From: an uncultured Planctomycetaceae bacterium
GTDB taxonomy: Bacteria; Planctomycetota; Planctomycetia; Pirellulales; Thermoguttaceae
Reading direction: 5' to 3'
Length of the DNA stretch: 45,707 nt
Assembly: GCA_947307005.1 (NCBI GenBank)
Contig: CAMZHY010000001.1
Coordinates: 1 to 45,707 of the forward strand
Below the pieces are notes generated by a model that saw only the letters and a program-made list of their open reading frames with translations, was not told where the DNA came from and searched no databases. Position numbers and translations under genes: made by a program. Below are positions 22,022 to 32,791 of the stretch, one piece after another (positions within the stretch are counted from its first letter, which is position 1; each line of letters opens with the position of its first letter).

Positions 22022-23035
22022 TTATGACCAGTCTTTAGACGTAGGATTTTTGGAATGTAATGCGTTTTTAACTTCATTGAGAGAAAAGATATAATAGAAG
22101 ACTCCGACTAGAGCTACTCCAATTGTCGCCAGTCTGTAAGCGACGCCGATCGCCATTCCGTATCCGTGTTGAAACGATTCGCCGTTGACGACGGGGAAAA
22201 GAGGATAGAGTTCGTCGAGAAAGTATTCCAGCGGTCCTGCGGATAGCGGTATTATTGAGCCGACGTTTCCTGAACAGTAAAGGATGATGTGATCAACGAG
22301 CGAGGGACTCTTATGGAAGAGACCTCGAGCAATAAGAAAAAGCGAAACGGCAAAACATAGATGAACGATGAACGTCGCCGCAAATGAATAAACGAGAGCT
22401 TTCTTGCGTTTTTGATACGACATTGTCGCATTTGCGAGTTTATGCATGAATCCGCCAATCAACGGGAGGCCTTGCGCAAACTTGATTCTCCAGCTCTGAG
22501 AGCTCGAGGGAGTCAGAACGAGTGCGAGAAAGACGGTTGCGGCTAGAGCGAGCGCGATTAGTCCATTGGTGGCGAATCGCGCGAGAGGTTCCGAGCGATG
22601 ATGGAAATCGGTGAAAAGGACGGCGATCAGTCCTAGAATGAACATAACGTATAAACCGACGACTCGGTCCATAATCACGCTTGCCGTCGCCTTATCGAAG
22701 GGCGTCTTTGTTTTTTGAGTCAAAAGGAAAACTTTTACAGCGTCGCCTCCCGCAATTCCAACGGGCGACAAATTAAACATAAAACCTATAAAGCCGATTC
22801 TCAGCGCGTCGGAAAGCGAGAACGGAGCGTCAAGAGCTTGAACGAGCGCGCGCCATCGGACAATCGTGACGGACGTTGCGATAAGATTGAAAATAAACCC
22901 GGCAAAAATGAGTTTAAACGAAATATCATGGAGCTTAAGTTCCTTGAAAACGGAACCGTTTGACGCGCGAACGATAAGGTAGGCGAAGAGCGCGACGACT
23001 AGAAGCGTCTTGAGAAGGAACGAGAGGAGTTTCAT
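22022..23035 (-). CDS. Flippase-like / lysylphosphatidylglycerol-synthase TM-region family (UPF0104) membrane protein
   Basis: Polytopic membrane protein with RWRALV..FIGFMFNLSPVGIAGGDAVKVFLL. The ATG at 23035 is preferred over the TTG at 23068. Confidence 0.8.
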   Translation of the reverse strand: MKLLSFLLKTLLVVALFAYLIVRASNGSVFKELKLHDISFKLIFAGFIFNLIATSVTIVRWRALVQALDAPFSLSDALRIGFIGFMFNLSPVGIAGGDAVKVFLLTQKTKTPFDKATASVIMDRVVGLYVMFILGLIAVLFTDFHHRSEPLARFATNGLIALALAATVFLALVLTPSSSQSWRIKFAQGLPLIGGFMHKLANATMSYQKRKKALVYSFAATFIVHLCFAVSLFLIARGLFHKSPSLVDHIILYCSGNVGSIIPLSAGPLEYFLDELYPLFPVVNGESFQHGYGMAIGVAYRLATIGVALVGVFYYIFSLNEVKNALHSKNPTSKDWS

Positions 23036-23240
23036 GTGGACAAGGAAATACAATGCGTACGTCGTCAAACTGGCCTACGGACGGCCGCGTCGATTTTAGA
23101 CGCGACACGTCTCCGATTTTAAAACATACGGAGCGAAACGACAAGACGGCGGCAAGCGCTAGCGATTTTTAACGAGGTATTAAAATCGTTATAAAGTAAT
23201 TGATTGGACCGTTAAAAGGATGAATTTTTTCAGAACGCAC

Positions 23241-26302: not shown

Positions 26303-26608
26303 ATGTTTATCGCGAAAATCGTCGGGTCGTTGGTTTCGACGCAGAAGACGGGTTCGATGGTTGGATCGAAGCTCATGATGATCGAGCCTTACGTCGTCGA
26401 TCCTCAAACGCGCGATCGTTTTAAGACGACGAGCCGTTCCTTAGTCGCGGTCGATATAGTCGGCGCCGGCGAGGGCGATTTTGTGCTCGTTGTTCAGGGT
26501 TCTAGCGCGCGTATGACGCCGGAAACAAAGTCTCTTCCAGTGGACTGCACGATTATTGGCGTCATCGACACGGTGACGCTTGATCGGCGGAACGTTCCTC
26601 TTGAATAG
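26303..26608 (+). CDS. BMC-P pentameric vertex protein (EutN/CcmL family), copy 1
   Basis: MFIAKIVGSLVSTQK...VDIVGAGEGDFVLVVQGSSAR; 101 aa. Confidence 0.9.
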   Translation: MFIAKIVGSLVSTQKTGSMVGSKLMMIEPYVVDPQTRDRFKTTSRSLVAVDIVGAGEGDFVLVVQGSSARMTPETKSLPVDCTIIGVIDTVTLDRRNVPLE

Positions 26609-28343: not shown

Positions 28344-28883
28344 ATGAACATCGGCAATTTTGAATGGGAAGTGTTCCGCCACTCGATTCACACCTTTAAC
28401 TGGTGGGAAGCGGGGATGGCGAGCTTCTTTATCATTGCCGGACTTGTTTCCATTAAATGGACGAAAAAGACGGGGTCGGTTGACGGGAAGAGCGTTAACG
28501 CTCTTTTTTGCCTTCTTCTTGGCTCGATAATGGGGTTGGCGTTTAAGCTTTTCGCGTACCTCGACGTGACGGTTCTTTTGCACGCGGCCCTTGTCGTCGT
28601 CTTTTTCCTCGATTTTAAGAAAACTAGAGATATTCGAAATCGACTCCTTAAAGCGGAAGACGCGCTCAACATAAAAAAGCGGCGCGATTCTCTTATAGGA
28701 GGCGTTAAGTCGACCGGTCGCGCTGACGCTTCAAGAGAGCATAGAGAGCATTCTCATTCGCATTCTCATCATTCGCATCATCATCATGAACGCGGACGCT
28801 CTCATTCGTCCGATCATGATTCGGACGCGTCGGCGAAGGAGCCAAAGAATCCTATCCACGACGATCCTTTGACGGACGAATAA
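28344..28883 (+). CDS. Small 3-TM membrane protein with His-rich C-terminal tail, function unknown
   Basis: Hydrophobic segments ASFFIIAGLVSI, ALFCLLLGSIMGLAFKLFAYL and VLLHAALVVVFFL. The tail reads HREHSHSHSHHSHHHHERGRSHSSDHD. Codon usage resembles neighbouring genes. Confidence 0.65.
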   Translation: MNIGNFEWEVFRHSIHTFNWWEAGMASFFIIAGLVSIKWTKKTGSVDGKSVNALFCLLLGSIMGLAFKLFAYLDVTVLLHAALVVVFFLDFKKTRDIRNRLLKAEDALNIKKRRDSLIGGVKSTGRADASREHREHSHSHSHHSHHHHERGRSHSSDHDSDASAKEPKNPIHDDPLTDE

Positions 28884-28900: not shown

Positions 28901-29185
28901 ATGAATCGCGCCCGTATTATTGGTTACGCGACCTCCGTGGTTAAACACGAGTCGCTTGTTGGACAGAAGATGTTAATCGCTCAGCCCGTAACGACCGACG
29001 GCAAGCCTGAAGGCGATCCTTCGATCGTTTACGATAAACTTGGCGCGGGCGTCGGCGATCTCGTCCTGATAACGAGCGACGGTTCCTTTACGCGAACTGA
29101 GATTATTGGGACGAAACTAACGCCCGCGCGTTGGGCGATTGTGGGAATTATCGATTCGGTTAAGAAATCGGACGCGGAAGAATGA
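28901..29185 (+). CDS. BMC-P vertex protein (EutN/CcmL family), copy 2
   Basis: MNRARIIGYATSVVKHESLVGQKMLIAQP...GAGVGDLVLITSDGS; 94 aa. Its stop overlaps the next start (ATGA). Confidence 0.9.
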   Translation: MNRARIIGYATSVVKHESLVGQKMLIAQPVTTDGKPEGDPSIVYDKLGAGVGDLVLITSDGSFTRTEIIGTKLTPARWAIVGIIDSVKKSDAEE

Positions 29186-30009
29186 ACGGATTGGATTGGG
29201 ACCTGGACGCTTTGGTCGGCGCGATCATGTCCGATCTCCGGGGACGTTCTCCCGTCGCGTCCGCCGAAAACGTTAGCGAGACGCTGTCTCGCGATTTTGC
29301 GGACGCTCGACGGTCGTTGAGCCAGCCGACGAAAGAACCGACCGTTTTTGACGTCGACGAGCGCGTCGTTGTTCGTGAGACCGTCGTCAAACTCGCGTCG
29401 ACGACTAAGTTGAAGGTTTGGCGTCTTCGCGGCGACGTTGTGGCGACCCCCGCCGCTTACGACGAGCTCGCCAGTCGAGGAATCAGCGTTATTCGCGCAG
29501 GTCGCAGCGACGTGAAATCGCCGACGCCCTCCCCTTCCCCGGCGCGCGCGACCCTTTCCGCGTCAAACGCCGCGGATCGGGAATCCGCGAAAGCGTTTAA
29601 GACGGACCAAGAGACTTCGAAATCCGCCTCGCGAGCGCAGGTCCTTTTGGCGACTTGTTTGCCGGAAAATGAACGCGCCCCTCAGGGAATTGTCGAATAC
29701 TTAAAACGCAACGCGGAATTCGTCGAAGAGCGCCTTGACTGCATGAAGAAGACGACGGAATTGGTCGCCGACTCTCTTGCGGCGAACGACGCGCTGAAAG
29801 TCGTTATTGCGACGCGCGACGGAGCGGTCGGGTGCGTTTGGGCAAATCGCAAAAAAGGCGTTCGCGCCGTCGTCGCCGTGACGGTCGAACAGGCGAAGCG
29901 CGACCTTGCGGCGACGAACGCCAATACGCTGATTTTGGATCCTCGCGACGTTGGACCTTATCAGGCGCGTCAGATTGTCGACTTCTTCACGCGAATGGGA
30001 CGAAGGTGA
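29182..30009 (+). CDS. BMC-associated protein: N-terminal amphipathic helix, S/P-rich linker, C-terminal degenerate RpiB/LacAB-like domain
   Basis: The C-terminus KVVIATRDGAVGCVWANRKKGVRAVVAVTVEQAKRDLAATNANTLILDPRDVGPYQARQIVDFF is colinear with the RpiB segment ILICGTGVGISIAANK..GIRA..HND.NVL..G.RV.G...A..IV. The alignment is from memory. Confidence 0.75.
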   Translation: MNGLDWDLDALVGAIMSDLRGRSPVASAENVSETLSRDFADARRSLSQPTKEPTVFDVDERVVVRETVVKLASTTKLKVWRLRGDVVATPAAYDELASRGISVIRAGRSDVKSPTPSPSPARATLSASNAADRESAKAFKTDQETSKSASRAQVLLATCLPENERAPQGIVEYLKRNAEFVEERLDCMKKTTELVADSLAANDALKVVIATRDGAVGCVWANRKKGVRAVVAVTVEQAKRDLAATNANTLILDPRDVGPYQARQIVDFFTRMGRR

Positions 30010-30013
30010 GACA

Positions 30014-30445
30014 ATGCGCATAGGTCAAGTCATCGGCAAGGTTGTGCTTAACCGCGTTCATCCGTCCATGATTGGAGCGCAGTTTAAGATAGTCGCACCG
30101 CTGACGTTTAACGATCTGGCGGAGCCCGATCCGCTTGAGTCCGCCCGGAGCGTCGGCGACGACGAGAACGAGCGCGGACTTGATCACGCCGCGCAGGTGG
30201 CGGCGGCGACGAATCGTCTCGCGAATCAGACGATTCCTCGACAGCGTGGAAACGAAATCGTCGTTTACGACGATTGTTCGGCCGCGATTGGAGAATGGCT
30301 CGCGTTTAGCGAAGGCGCCGAGGCGGCCGCCGCGTTTGGCGTGGAAAATCCTCATCCGGTCGACGCGTTTGGCGGCGCGATCATCGACAACGTCGAGATT
30401 GACGCCCAAGTCGTCGCGGAACTTGCGGCGATGAAGAATAAGTAA
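30014..30445 (+). CDS. BMC-P vertex protein (EutN/CcmL family), copy 3, with ~50-aa internal insertion
   Basis: MRIGQVIGKVVLNRVHPSMIGAQFKIVAPL then an insert, then EIVVYDDCSAAIGEWLAFSEG. GAAGGTGAG lies upstream of ATG 30014. Confidence 0.8.
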   Translation: MRIGQVIGKVVLNRVHPSMIGAQFKIVAPLTFNDLAEPDPLESARSVGDDENERGLDHAAQVAAATNRLANQTIPRQRGNEIVVYDDCSAAIGEWLAFSEGAEAAAAFGVENPHPVDAFGGAIIDNVEIDAQVVAELAAMKNK

Positions 30446-30627: not shown

Positions 30628-31515
30628 ATGCTCAATTTGCACCAAGTTAAGGACGAAATCTGCGACATTGGTCGTAGATTGTACAATCGGGGGTTTGCGG
30701 CGGCGAACGACGGCAATATCAGCTATCGTATCGACGAAAATCGCGTCGTCTGCACCCCGACGCAAATCTGCAAGGGATTTATGAAGCCCGAGGATCTTTG
30801 CATCGTCGACATGGAGGGAAATCAGATCGCCGGCACGCGTAAGCGCACGAGCGAAATCTTCCTCCACCTGACGATCATGAAGGAACGCCCCGAAGTTCGT
30901 TCCGTCCTCCATTGCCATCCGCCTTATCCTACCGCCTTCGGGATTGCGAAGGAAGCGATTCCTCAGTGCGTCCTTCCCGAAGTCGATATCTATATGGGCG
31001 ACGTTCCGATTGCGAAGTACGCGATTCCGGGCGGTCAGGAGTTTGCCGACACCGTTTTGCCGTATATTCATAAGTCCGACATCATCGTCCTTGCCAATCA
31101 CGGCACCGTCAGCTTGGGTCCGACCGTCGAAAAAGCGTACTGGCTGACCGAAATTCTCGACGCGTATTGCCGTATCCTTATGATCTCTCACGATCTTGGC
31201 AAAACAAGCTACTTCACGAAAGACGAAGCGGAAGCGCTCCTTCAGCTCAAGACGAAGTGGGGTATCAAGGATCCGCGCCTTCAGGCGGAAAATTGCGAGC
31301 TTTGCGCGAACGATATGTTCCGCGACAGCTGGAAGGAAACGGGCGTCGGTCACCGCGCGTTCAATCCCCCGACGTTCCGTCGCGGCGACGAGCCTTGCGG
31401 TTGCGCCTCTAATCCGATCCTGAACAACAACGTCGAAGTCGGCAAGGACCCCGAAACGGAAGCGCTTGTCAAAGCGATCGCCGATCGCGTTATTGAGATG
31501 ATCAATAAGAAGTGA
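30628..31515 (+). CDS. Class II (Zn-dependent) aldolase, fuculose/rhamnulose-1-phosphate aldolase-like, with ~80-aa C-terminal extension ending in an encapsulation peptide
   Basis: NDGNISYR, HLTIM, LHCHPP and ANHG motifs. The extension has CELC and CGC pairs and a terminal ETEALVKAIADRVIEMINKK. Confidence 0.93.
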   Translation: MLNLHQVKDEICDIGRRLYNRGFAAANDGNISYRIDENRVVCTPTQICKGFMKPEDLCIVDMEGNQIAGTRKRTSEIFLHLTIMKERPEVRSVLHCHPPYPTAFGIAKEAIPQCVLPEVDIYMGDVPIAKYAIPGGQEFADTVLPYIHKSDIIVLANHGTVSLGPTVEKAYWLTEILDAYCRILMISHDLGKTSYFTKDEAEALLQLKTKWGIKDPRLQAENCELCANDMFRDSWKETGVGHRAFNPPTFRRGDEPCGCASNPILNNNVEVGKDPETEALVKAIADRVIEMINKK

Positions 31516-31669: not shown

Positions 31670-32791
31670 ATGGGCGAAAGAGAACAAGCGCGTCGCGAAC
31701 GGTTGATTAGCGTGATGAACGAGACGGGATTGGACGGTTACCTGATAGGGGATCCTGTGAACGTTTCCTATCTGACAGGGTTTCGCGGAGACGATTCCTT
31801 GCTTTGGATCGGCGACGCGGGCGTCTGTCTATTGAGCGACACGCGATTTGAGGAGCAAATCAAAGAGGAATGCCCCGATATCGGAGCGTTGATCCGTCAG
31901 AGCGGTCAAACGACAAGCGGTTTGCTGAAAGTCGCCATTTTCGACGACAGATATTCCTCTTCTTATCCGAAACGTATCGGAATCGAAGCGGCGACGACGA
32001 CCGTTTCTTCCTTAGACGGACTTCGCGCGTCTCTTTCCGACGTTGAATTCGTCCCGCGTTATCTAGACGTCGAACGTCTCCGTGCCGTCAAAGACGAAGA
32101 TGAAATCCGCGCGATTCAGAGCGCGATCGACGTCTCAATCGACGCGTATCGCGATATTCGCGCGCAGGTTGGCGCGGACGCTAGCGAGGCTGATCTGCGC
32201 GACGAGTTGGAGTATCGAATGCGAAAACGCGGCGGCGACGACGTTTCTTTTCCGTCGATTATCGCGTTTGACGAACGCGCCGCCCTACCCCATGCGATTC
32301 CGACGCGAAACGGACGGTACGGCGACGCGAGGATGGTTCTGATCGACTGGGGCGCGAAAAAGGACGGTTATGTCGGCGATCTAACGCGCAGTTTTTTGAC
32401 GGAACGAGGTCTTTCAGAGTCTCAGACTGAGTATCGTGAGAAGTTCGAAGAAATCTTCAAGATCGTTCTTGAGGCTCACGACAAAGCGATCGAGGCGATT
32501 AAGCCGGGCGCGATTTGTCGCGACGTCGATAAAATCGCTCGCGATACGATACGAGACGCGGGATACGGCGACTATTTTGGACATGGGCTTGGTCACGGAA
32601 TCGGTCGCGTCGTCCATGATTTTGGCGGATTATCGCCAAACGCGACCGCGCTGTTAGAGGAGAATATGATTATGACCGTCGAACCGGGAATCTATCTTCC
32701 CGGTTGGGGAGGAATCCGTATCGAAGACGACGTCCTTGTTACGAAAACAGGATGCGAGATTCTATCGAAAAGACTTCCAGATAACGAGTGA
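31670..32791 (+). CDS. M24-family Xaa-Pro aminopeptidase/dipeptidase
   Basis: Creatinase-like N-domain plus M24 metal ligand motifs (DWGAKKDGYVGDLTR, HGLGHGIG, TVEPGIY, IRIEDD). Confidence 0.92.
   Translation: MGEREQARRERLISVMNETGLDGYLIGDPVNVSYLTGFRGDDSLLWIGDAGVCLLSDTRFEEQIKEECPDIGALIRQSGQTTSGLLKVAIFDDRYSSSYPKRIGIEAATTTVSSLDGLRASLSDVEFVPRYLDVERLRAVKDEDEIRAIQSAIDVSIDAYRDIRAQVGADASEADLRDELEYRMRKRGGDDVSFPSIIAFDERAALPHAIPTRNGRYGDARMVLIDWGAKKDGYVGDLTRSFLTERGLSESQTEYREKFEEIFKIVLEAHDKAIEAIKPGAICRDVDKIARDTIRDAGYGDYFGHGLGHGIGRVVHDFGGLSPNATALLEENMIMTVEPGIYLPGWGGIRIEDDVLVTKTGCEILSKRLPDNE

Follow-up and report, generated by a model that had tools for sequence, protein, structure and literature searches.

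The PvmL ortholog of a Thermoguttaceae microcompartment locus joins a predicted encapsulation peptide to a degenerate RpiB fold and is a candidate non-catalytic organiser

The stretch of DNA analysed here, called the window throughout, comprises 45,707 nucleotides of an uncultured Planctomycetaceae bacterium of the Thermoguttaceae (assembly GCA_947307005.1, contig CAMZHY010000001.1) and carries a bacterial microcompartment (BMC) locus. Our subject is a 275-aa open reading frame (ORF) of this locus, at 29182..30009 on the + strand, which lies between two genes for pentameric shell proteins (BMC-P). From its homologues and its slot in the gene order, read together with the ORF list and the raw sequence, we conclude that it encodes the PvmL ortholog of the Thermoguttaceae lineage. 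Alignments and a structural model indicate that its C-terminal domain has the fold of ribose-5-phosphate isomerase B (RpiB) and that, of the features required for catalysis in the RpiB/LacAB family of sugar-phosphate isomerases, it has none of those that could be tested. By analogy with a characterised system, PvmL is probably a component of the PVM metabolosome that acts as a non-catalytic organiser of cargo or shell and not as an isomerase.

By its set of enzyme and shell genes the locus is a metabolosome locus of the PVM (Planctomycetes/Verrucomicrobia) type, for which the founding study was reportedly that of Erbilgin et al. in 2014. The PVM microcompartment serves the breakdown of L-fucose and L-rhamnose via lactaldehyde (PMC4207490; PMC8217296). 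Between 23.4 and 31.5 kb of the window, the genes follow each other in the order PduL-type phosphotransacylase (PTAC), BMC-H, a second short BMC-H (known only as the second tblastn match in related loci), acetate kinase, BMC-P, aldehyde dehydrogenase, a 179-aa ORF, BMC-P, the 275-aa ORF, BMC-P, class II aldolase and M24 peptidase. The order of the cluster in Planctopirus limnophila, a genetically tractable species, is pvmABDEGHIJKLMNO (PMC11958385). In the catalog of Sutter et al. (2021), which comprises 285 PVM loci, PvmH is the standard pentamer, PvmJ the aldehyde dehydrogenase, PvmK 'special pentamer 1 / greys', PvmM 'special pentamer 2' and PvmO an Ldh-type dehydrogenase (PMC8217296). A scan of species-representative genomes with degenerate patterns, which reached the Thermoguttaceae clade only and not P. 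limnophila, gave 31 loci, nearly all of them from gut or rumen metagenome-assembled genomes of Thermoguttaceae. The gene order is identical in every sufficiently long locus among these 31 species-level genomes. PvmL is present in all 35 PVM loci examined, and the succession PvmK-PvmL-PvmM is kept in every complete one.

The assignment of the ORF to PvmL is bridged by distant relatives. Its 52 close homologues all carry a precomputed PF02502 match; 'RpiB/LacA/LacB family sugar-phosphate isomerase' is the name given to a few of them, the others being unnamed or hypothetical. A profile search of 1.84 billion cluster representatives retrieved 859 proteins at E <= 1e-3, including 226 at E <= 1e-10, mostly of 220-340 aa and matching in two stretches. 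Four distant members (P0256, P0202, P0225 and P0253; 21-28% identity) could be placed on long contigs, the loci L032-L035. Their genes are arranged as DeoR, PTAC, BMC-H, BMC-H, acetate kinase, BMC-P, aldehyde dehydrogenase, BMC-P, the homologue, BMC-P and class II aldolase, and one of these four canonical loci, L033, also has an Ldh-type dehydrogenase gene. The encapsulation peptide model HMM02441_01.PVM of the BMC catalog has the consensus ..lIerIVrEVLrRL.., to which N termini of the broad family, such as LEIERIVREVLASM and IDIERLVREVMAEL, correspond closely when compared by eye over nodes 1-25. The sequence of the window clade, LDALVGAIMSDL, fits its hydrophobic pattern, again by eye, with Ile at the near-invariant Val19. 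Because the homologues of L032-L035 occupy the same slot and the consensus of the model is that of the family's N terminus, the window ORF can be equated with PvmL. The gene is hence already known in kind, as a conserved and uncharacterised component of PVM loci, an identity that was missing from the original prediction made from the sequence of the window. No function is assigned to PvmL in the literature that we searched by full text.

Residues 150-275 (29629..30006, +) make up the degenerate domain of RpiB/LacAB fold, as judged from Pfam, profile alignments, the model and Foldseek. PF02502 (LacAB_rpiB) matches residues 191-270 over profile positions 43-122 of 138, with an E-value of 3.9e-08 and 33.8 bits against a gathering threshold of 24.7. 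The NCBIfam RpiB models give 18-30 bits versus cutoffs of 88-240 (TIGR00689, 29.5 versus 88.3; NF004051, 30.4 versus 135; TIGR01120, 18.3 versus 138.65). In an AlphaFold2 model of PvmL based on 26 homologues, with a mean predicted local distance difference test score (pLDDT) of 77.7, these residues form a five-stranded alpha/beta domain with pLDDT above 90. Foldseek matches in the PDB at E <= 0.001 (ranks 1-40) are RpiB/LacAB-family structures throughout, with a best E-value of 1.3e-08, target TM-scores up to 0.80 and root mean square deviations of 2.1-3.4 Å. Likewise, two family profiles run against all PDB sequences found meaningful scores for RpiB/LacB chains only, and the scattered other matches are non-significant (E >= 0.036). 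PvmL retains N-[KR]..G[IV]RA and A-N-x-L, framework motifs of ribose-5-phosphate isomerase B and galactose-6-phosphate isomerase LacAB (PF02502; EC 5.3.1.6 and 5.3.1.26). The original prediction had described an RpiB-like C-terminal part of ~110 residues; the relationship holds, whereas the length does not, since the structure extends the domain to ~125 residues. Its N-terminal third is too diverged for sequence alignment.

What sets this domain apart from an isomerase is the loss of catalytic residues, which we mapped by profile alignment on Clostridium thermocellum RpiB (3he8), with a numbering that reproduces the published Cys65 and His98. The catalytic Cys65 (Cys66 in Escherichia coli) corresponds to T211, a residue that does not vary within the clade; in the family as a whole, this position is Thr in 212, Ser in 36 and Cys in one of 253 aligned members, and none of these has a CG[TS]G motif. 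Further replacements were followed in an alignment of 47 diverse PvmL members with a mean column identity of 22%. Thr67 (E. coli Thr68) is replaced by D213 in the window and by Tyr, His or Asp among the diverse members, and His98 (E. coli His99) by A244, with Ser, Ala, Leu or Gln but never His in the alignment. At the position of Asn99 (E. coli Asn100) the window protein has T245, and the 47 members have Thr in 5 cases and Val, Leu, Ile, Met or Ala in the remaining 42. The position of the Mycobacterium tuberculosis Glu75 is G217, and Gly or Ala in the 47 members. PvmL thus has a catalytic base of neither the Cys66 type nor the M. tuberculosis Glu75 type, and we judged an active isomerase with an alternative base unlikely.

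The phosphate-binding end of the active site is gone as well. Alignment to RpiB chains stops near chain residue 127-147, which corresponds to residues ~270-272 of the 275 of the ORF. As PvmL ends about five residues past the last aligned helix, no sequence is left in the window protein for the C-terminal helix that carries the phosphate-binding Arg133, His134 and Arg137 in E. coli. At the other end of the domain, strand beta-1 ends at residue 159 (C159-L160-P161) in the model, and the Asp9-His10 region is not aligned by sequence methods. Position 159 is His in 31 of the 47 members, where the window protein has Cys instead, and Asp is not among the seven commonest residues at 158-159, in a register that is provisional there. 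We infer from these comparisons that PvmL almost certainly does not isomerise sugar phosphates. The proposal of a pseudo-isomerase with substituted catalytic positions is therefore well supported, both by the replacements in the window protein and by the prevalence of Thr or Ser at the Cys66 position. The same prediction went on to suggest a subunit that binds sugar phosphates or hands phosphosugar to the aldolase. Neither suggestion is supported, because the helix of the phosphate clamp is absent and the Asn100 position is mostly hydrophobic across the family.

Two cysteine features of the family deserve mention at this point. A conserved Cys-Pro ('CP') motif ends 162 of 264 family members (e.g. 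P0084, P0141 and P0198) and is absent from the window clade. C187 (nt 29740-29742) is nearly invariant, being present in 46 of the 47 diverse members. In RpiBs, the C-terminal helix of one subunit reaches the active site of its neighbour, so that C187 and the C-terminal Cys could meet across the dimer interface. It is tempting to speculate that they might form a disulfide or a metal site there.

Over its whole length, the PvmL family consists of a predicted encapsulation-peptide helix, a small alpha/beta domain, a disordered linker and the degenerate RpiB domain. Only V12, T89, P90 and N248 are invariant in the 47 diverse members, and D94, C187, N222, R223, R228, A229, A247, L250 and F269 are nearly so. 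The N-terminal amphipathic helix, DWDLDALVGAIMSDLRG (residues ~5-21; 29194..29244, +), is a predicted encapsulation peptide; the model has a helix at residues 8-21, in which L8, L11, V12, I15, M16 and L19 follow the i, i+3, i+4, i+7 hydrophobic spacing of such peptides. Alignment and model agree on a second helix at residues 28-46 (29263..29319, +), with L35, D38 and F39 invariant in the clade. The linker, at residues 109-148 (29506..29625, +), is rich in Ser, Pro and Ala and disordered, with pLDDT below 50. Both the N-terminal helix and the linker had been anticipated from the sequence, and the model bears them out. An S-A-S-N motif stands out within the linker (residues 126-129, nt 29557-29568), as each of its residues reaches at least 90% conservation among the clade members, and this stretch resembles a short linear motif for binding. 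Of 264 family members, 61 have S[AS]SN, and only 7 of these also have the C-terminal 'CP' tail.

The domain between the helices and the linker had escaped the original prediction. It is a conserved extra domain of no known family, which spans residues 52-108 (29335..29505, +) and has a beta-alpha-beta-alpha-beta topology, compact at 55-105 with pLDDT above 90 in the full model, and with pLDDT 87.9 when modelled on its own. Together with D94, the invariant T89 and P90 form a TP...D motif. Searches for relatives of this domain gave little. The separate model had no significant PDB fold match by Foldseek, the best (E 0.08) being to generic beta-alpha-beta units of RPB5, chaperonins and eIF5B, and the profile of the domain run against PDB sequences gave only non-significant matches to ribosomal protein S5 (E 0.18). 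A Pfam scan of 41 middle-domain sequences at E <= 10 returned scattered single matches only. One of these is a weak match of one of the 41 sequences to PF15953 'PDU_like', a putative propanediol utilisation family (E 0.057). The pattern VVT..(10-20)..VVTPxxRDEL of the domain is reminiscent of the N-terminal motif of some PduO-type adenosyltransferases (PF12557), a resemblance that no scan supported.

The immediate surroundings of pvmL are those originally described, with three co-directional genes within 28901-30445, BMC-P, the 275-aa ORF and BMC-P, as confirmed in the ORF list and the raw sequence. The upstream gene (28901..29185, +; PF03319 EutN_CcmL, E 5.7e-23) codes for a PvmK-type pentamer protein of 94 aa, the second BMC-P paralog of the locus; it is the BMC-P found upstream of pvmL throughout loci L001-L035. 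Its stop codon overlaps the start of the ORF in an ATGA at 29182-29185. The ORF ends with TGA at 30007-30009, 4 nt before the ATG at 30014 of the third paralog, a PvmM-type BMC-P of 143 aa (30014..30445, +; PF03319, E 1.6e-15 over residues 1-125). Translational coupling had been proposed for all three genes. It holds for the upstream junction, since the distance from the PvmK stop to the PvmL start is between -8 and +10 nt in 28 of 29 loci, with the exact 4-nt ATGA-type overlap in 12 of the 29, and PvmK-PvmL coupling is a conserved feature for this reason. It does not extend to the downstream junction, as the gap between PvmL and PvmM ranges from 4 to 84 nt among the 29 loci and the 4-nt gap of the window is not general. 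The third member of the BMC-P triplet, paralog 1, is a standard pentamer of the PvmH type and is encoded further upstream (26303..26608, +; PF03319, E 2.9e-26). The PvmM-type protein (30014-30445, +) owes its length of 143 aa to an insertion of ~38 residues at about residues 45-83, which is kept in the Thermoguttaceae clade and missing from the aligned PvmM-slot proteins of 97-99 aa in L032-L035.

Sequence conservation differs markedly along the locus. Identity across the clade amounts to 89-100% for the class II aldolase, the PvmN-type signature enzyme (30628..31515, +; PF00596, E 7.6e-46), 83-96% for the aldehyde dehydrogenase, 70-94% for the upstream and 55-87% for the downstream BMC-P, and 34-66% for the 275-aa ORF. 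Within the conserved core of the locus, to which the clade-specific 179-aa ORF does not belong, PvmL evolves fastest, and a structural role therefore fits it better than an enzymatic one. An RpiB fold devoid of the catalytic residues likewise makes a packaging subunit more likely than an enzyme.

How PvmL might serve as an organiser can be sketched by analogy with the RPI of SPU (sugar-phosphate utilisation) microcompartments. This protein consists of an N-terminal encapsulation peptide, a disordered linker of ~75 residues and an RPI domain (Dwyer et al. 2024, PMC11585597). All SPU RPIs have Asp in place of Cys66 and keep His99; the RPI has negligible isomerase activity, is a tetramer and assembles with the signature aldolase DERA in a complex of roughly 1:1, and its authors proposed that catalysis was lost and a packaging role retained (PMC11585597). 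In the case of PvmL, the encapsulation peptide would target the protein to the inner face of the shell or to the cargo core. The RpiB-like domain might oligomerise and thereby present several encapsulation peptides and TP...D domains. We propose oligomerisation because RpiBs are dimers or tetramers. The encapsulation peptide, perhaps with the TP...D domain and the S-A-S-N motif, would then tie cargo and shell together during assembly, and PvmL could in this way attach to the shell cargo enzymes, of which the class II aldolase may be one, or the specialised BMC-P paralogs, or both. The aldolase is put forward as a partner purely by analogy with the SPU RPI-DERA complex (PMC11585597), and the conserved coupling points to PvmK as another possible partner.

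Several points weigh against such an organiser. The literature searched reports no interaction, localisation or activity of PvmL, and its oligomerisation through the RpiB-like domain is an assumption. The catalog table of hidden Markov models files PvmL under PF02441 'Flavoprotein' (PMC8217296), which hints at another reading. Most family members have a His at 159, near the RpiB dyad in a provisional register. The polar residues in or near the former active site, namely C187, T/S211, N222, R223, R228 and N248, are nearly invariant, and for that reason a new ligand-binding or catalytic role is possible. PvmL would then be a neo-functionalised enzyme or ligand sensor, with an RpiB-like pocket rebuilt around Thr/Ser211, Cys187, Asn222-Arg223 and mostly His159 for a pathway metabolite, e.g. 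lactaldehyde, a deoxy-ketose phosphate or dihydroxyacetone phosphate. The persistence of this polar set despite the low mean identity of the alignment speaks for a pocket, as do the Pfam score above gathering and the isomerase label of members in some public records. We nevertheless consider it improbable, as every known catalytic or phosphate-binding residue of RpiB is replaced or missing and the gene evolves faster than any other of the locus. Moreover, N-R...R-A and A-N are also the top framework motifs of ordinary RpiBs, and their retention may reflect the fold; and the better-preserved SPU RPI is already inactive, in spite of its His99 (PMC11585597). The catalog label itself would point to a redox or flavin protein with a part in NAD+ recycling within the compartment. 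BMC loci often contain flavin-associated Pfams (PMC4207490; PMC11626177), NAD+ recycling has no assigned gene within the window locus because the adjacent Ldh-type PvmO dehydrogenase is missing, and C187 could be enlisted on the same side. PvmL as a PF02441 flavoprotein was rejected on both sequence and fold. At E <= 0.1, PF02441 is matched by none of the 47 diverse members and PF02502 by 24; no flavoprotein of the HFCD type is found among the PDB sequence matches of the two family profiles (E <= 10), which recover RpiB/LacB, or in the 50 best Foldseek matches. A flavin-dependent role is thus very improbable and comes last among the rivals, after the neo-functionalised pocket.

The rival that we rank first, although we still think it unlikely, is that PvmL is an adaptor of the shell vertices, which binds the 'grey' PvmK and/or the 'orange' PvmM to decorate, gate or position these pentamers; gating and decoration of vertices had been suggested in the original prediction. 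The conserved PvmK-PvmL-PvmM order would find an explanation, as would the overlapping or nearly overlapping PvmK-PvmL junction, which is expected for proteins made in a fixed proportion, and what the extra BMC-P paralogs do is a recognised question of the field (PMC8217296; PMC11585597). All of this is evidence from gene order, in which the loose PvmL-PvmM spacing is already a discordant element. In those SPU types that possess both the grey and the orange pentamer, their genes adjoin and no PvmL-like gene is mentioned between them (PMC11585597), and encapsulation peptides are generally said to link cargo to the shell lumen and not to pentamers (PMC8217296). The organiser and the vertex could also be combined in a bolder proposal, to which we give little credence for now. 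The TP...D domain and/or the dead RpiB domain would bind both the grey PvmK and the orange PvmM and couple them to the cargo core, which would explain the BMC-P 'triplet', and the dead RpiB domain would share an ancestral BMC-associated RPI with that of the SPU loci. If this were true, a module of an RPI and two pentamers would be an ancient building block common to sugar-phosphate and deoxy-sugar metabolosomes.

Other genes in and around the locus show features of their own. The 179-aa ORF between the aldehyde dehydrogenase gene and the PvmK-type BMC-P (28344-28883, +) combines membrane-like hydrophobic segments with a tail rich in His (HREHSHSHSHHSHHHHERGRSH...), and neither Pfam nor NCBIfam has a family that matches it; it could be a membrane or metal-binding protein within a microcompartment operon. 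About 19 related Thermoguttaceae loci have a detectable counterpart in this place, at 26-60% identity, and the canonical loci L032-L035 have none. In every related Thermoguttaceae locus that is long enough on this side, the aldolase gene is followed by that of the M24 (Xaa-Pro) peptidase (31670-32791, + in the window), with 62-80% identity. Canonical PVM loci have a DeoR regulator (pvmA) and an Ldh-type dehydrogenase (pvmO), neither of which adjoins the window locus; a divergently oriented LPG_synthase_TM gene (22022-23068, -) lies upstream instead. One of the scanned contigs with the full PVM gene order, L006 (CAVGEG010000011.1), bears the actinobacterial title 'Paratractidigestivibacter sp.', yet its genes share 80-95% identity with those of the Thermoguttaceae loci, and the contig is probably mis-binned or mislabelled.

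PVM microcompartments provide planctomycetes and verrucomicrobia with the route for burning the fucose and rhamnose of algal and plant polysaccharides. What this work adds is the re-assignment of PvmL from 'Flavoprotein' to a degenerate RpiB fold, the definition of its four-module architecture and invariant residues, and the documentation of the conserved PvmK-PvmL coupling. Together with the SPU RPI parallel, the re-assignment yields a testable hypothesis for the organisation of cargo and possibly for the presence of three pentamer paralogs. In genome annotation, family members that bear the label 'RpiB/LacA/LacB family sugar-phosphate isomerase' should not be taken for enzymes of the pentose phosphate pathway.

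Compared with known systems, PvmL departs from RpiB/LacAB enzymes by the absence of Thr68, His99, Asn100 and the Arg133/Arg137 helix, and by scores far below the NCBIfam cutoffs. The window ORF resembles the PvmL of other PVM loci in its slot flanked by PvmK and PvmM, its locus content and its four modules. The window clade nevertheless forms a divergent branch, with 21-28% identity to typical members, and lacks the 'CP' tail of most of the family; its locus differs from canonical ones by the missing regulator and dehydrogenase neighbours and by the presence of the membrane/His-rich ORF and of the M24 peptidase. Enzyme-derived, non-catalytic organisers are known from other microcompartments, such as the gamma-carbonic-anhydrase domain of CcmM and the dead aldehyde dehydrogenase copy of GRM1 loci (PMC11585597, PMC4207490). 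Like them, PvmL has kept an enzyme fold after the loss of catalysis and is proposed to play a structural role; the folds are unrelated, and in PvmL the role is read from sequence and model.

The closest characterised analogue of PvmL is the published SPU RPI, through which catalytically dead RpiBs were already an established concept for microcompartments, a parallel that had not been drawn for this locus in the original prediction. Both proteins contain an encapsulation peptide, predicted in PvmL, a disordered linker and a domain of RpiB fold without the catalytic Cys, and both are encoded beside BMC-P genes and a signature aldolase; in SPU1 loci, the RPI and DERA genes adjoin two BMC-P genes (PMC11585597). 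The candidate partner of PvmL is a class II aldolase (PF00596), in contrast to DERA (PF01791), and no PF01791 enzyme was found among the locus genes scanned. Unlike the SPU RPI, which has Asp at the Cys66 position, PvmL has Thr or Ser there; it is moreover devoid of His99, of Asn100 and of the Arg helix at the C terminus, and it possesses the additional TP...D domain. By this comparison, PvmL appears to carry the design of the SPU RPI a step beyond, with a greater loss of catalytic residues and one additional domain.

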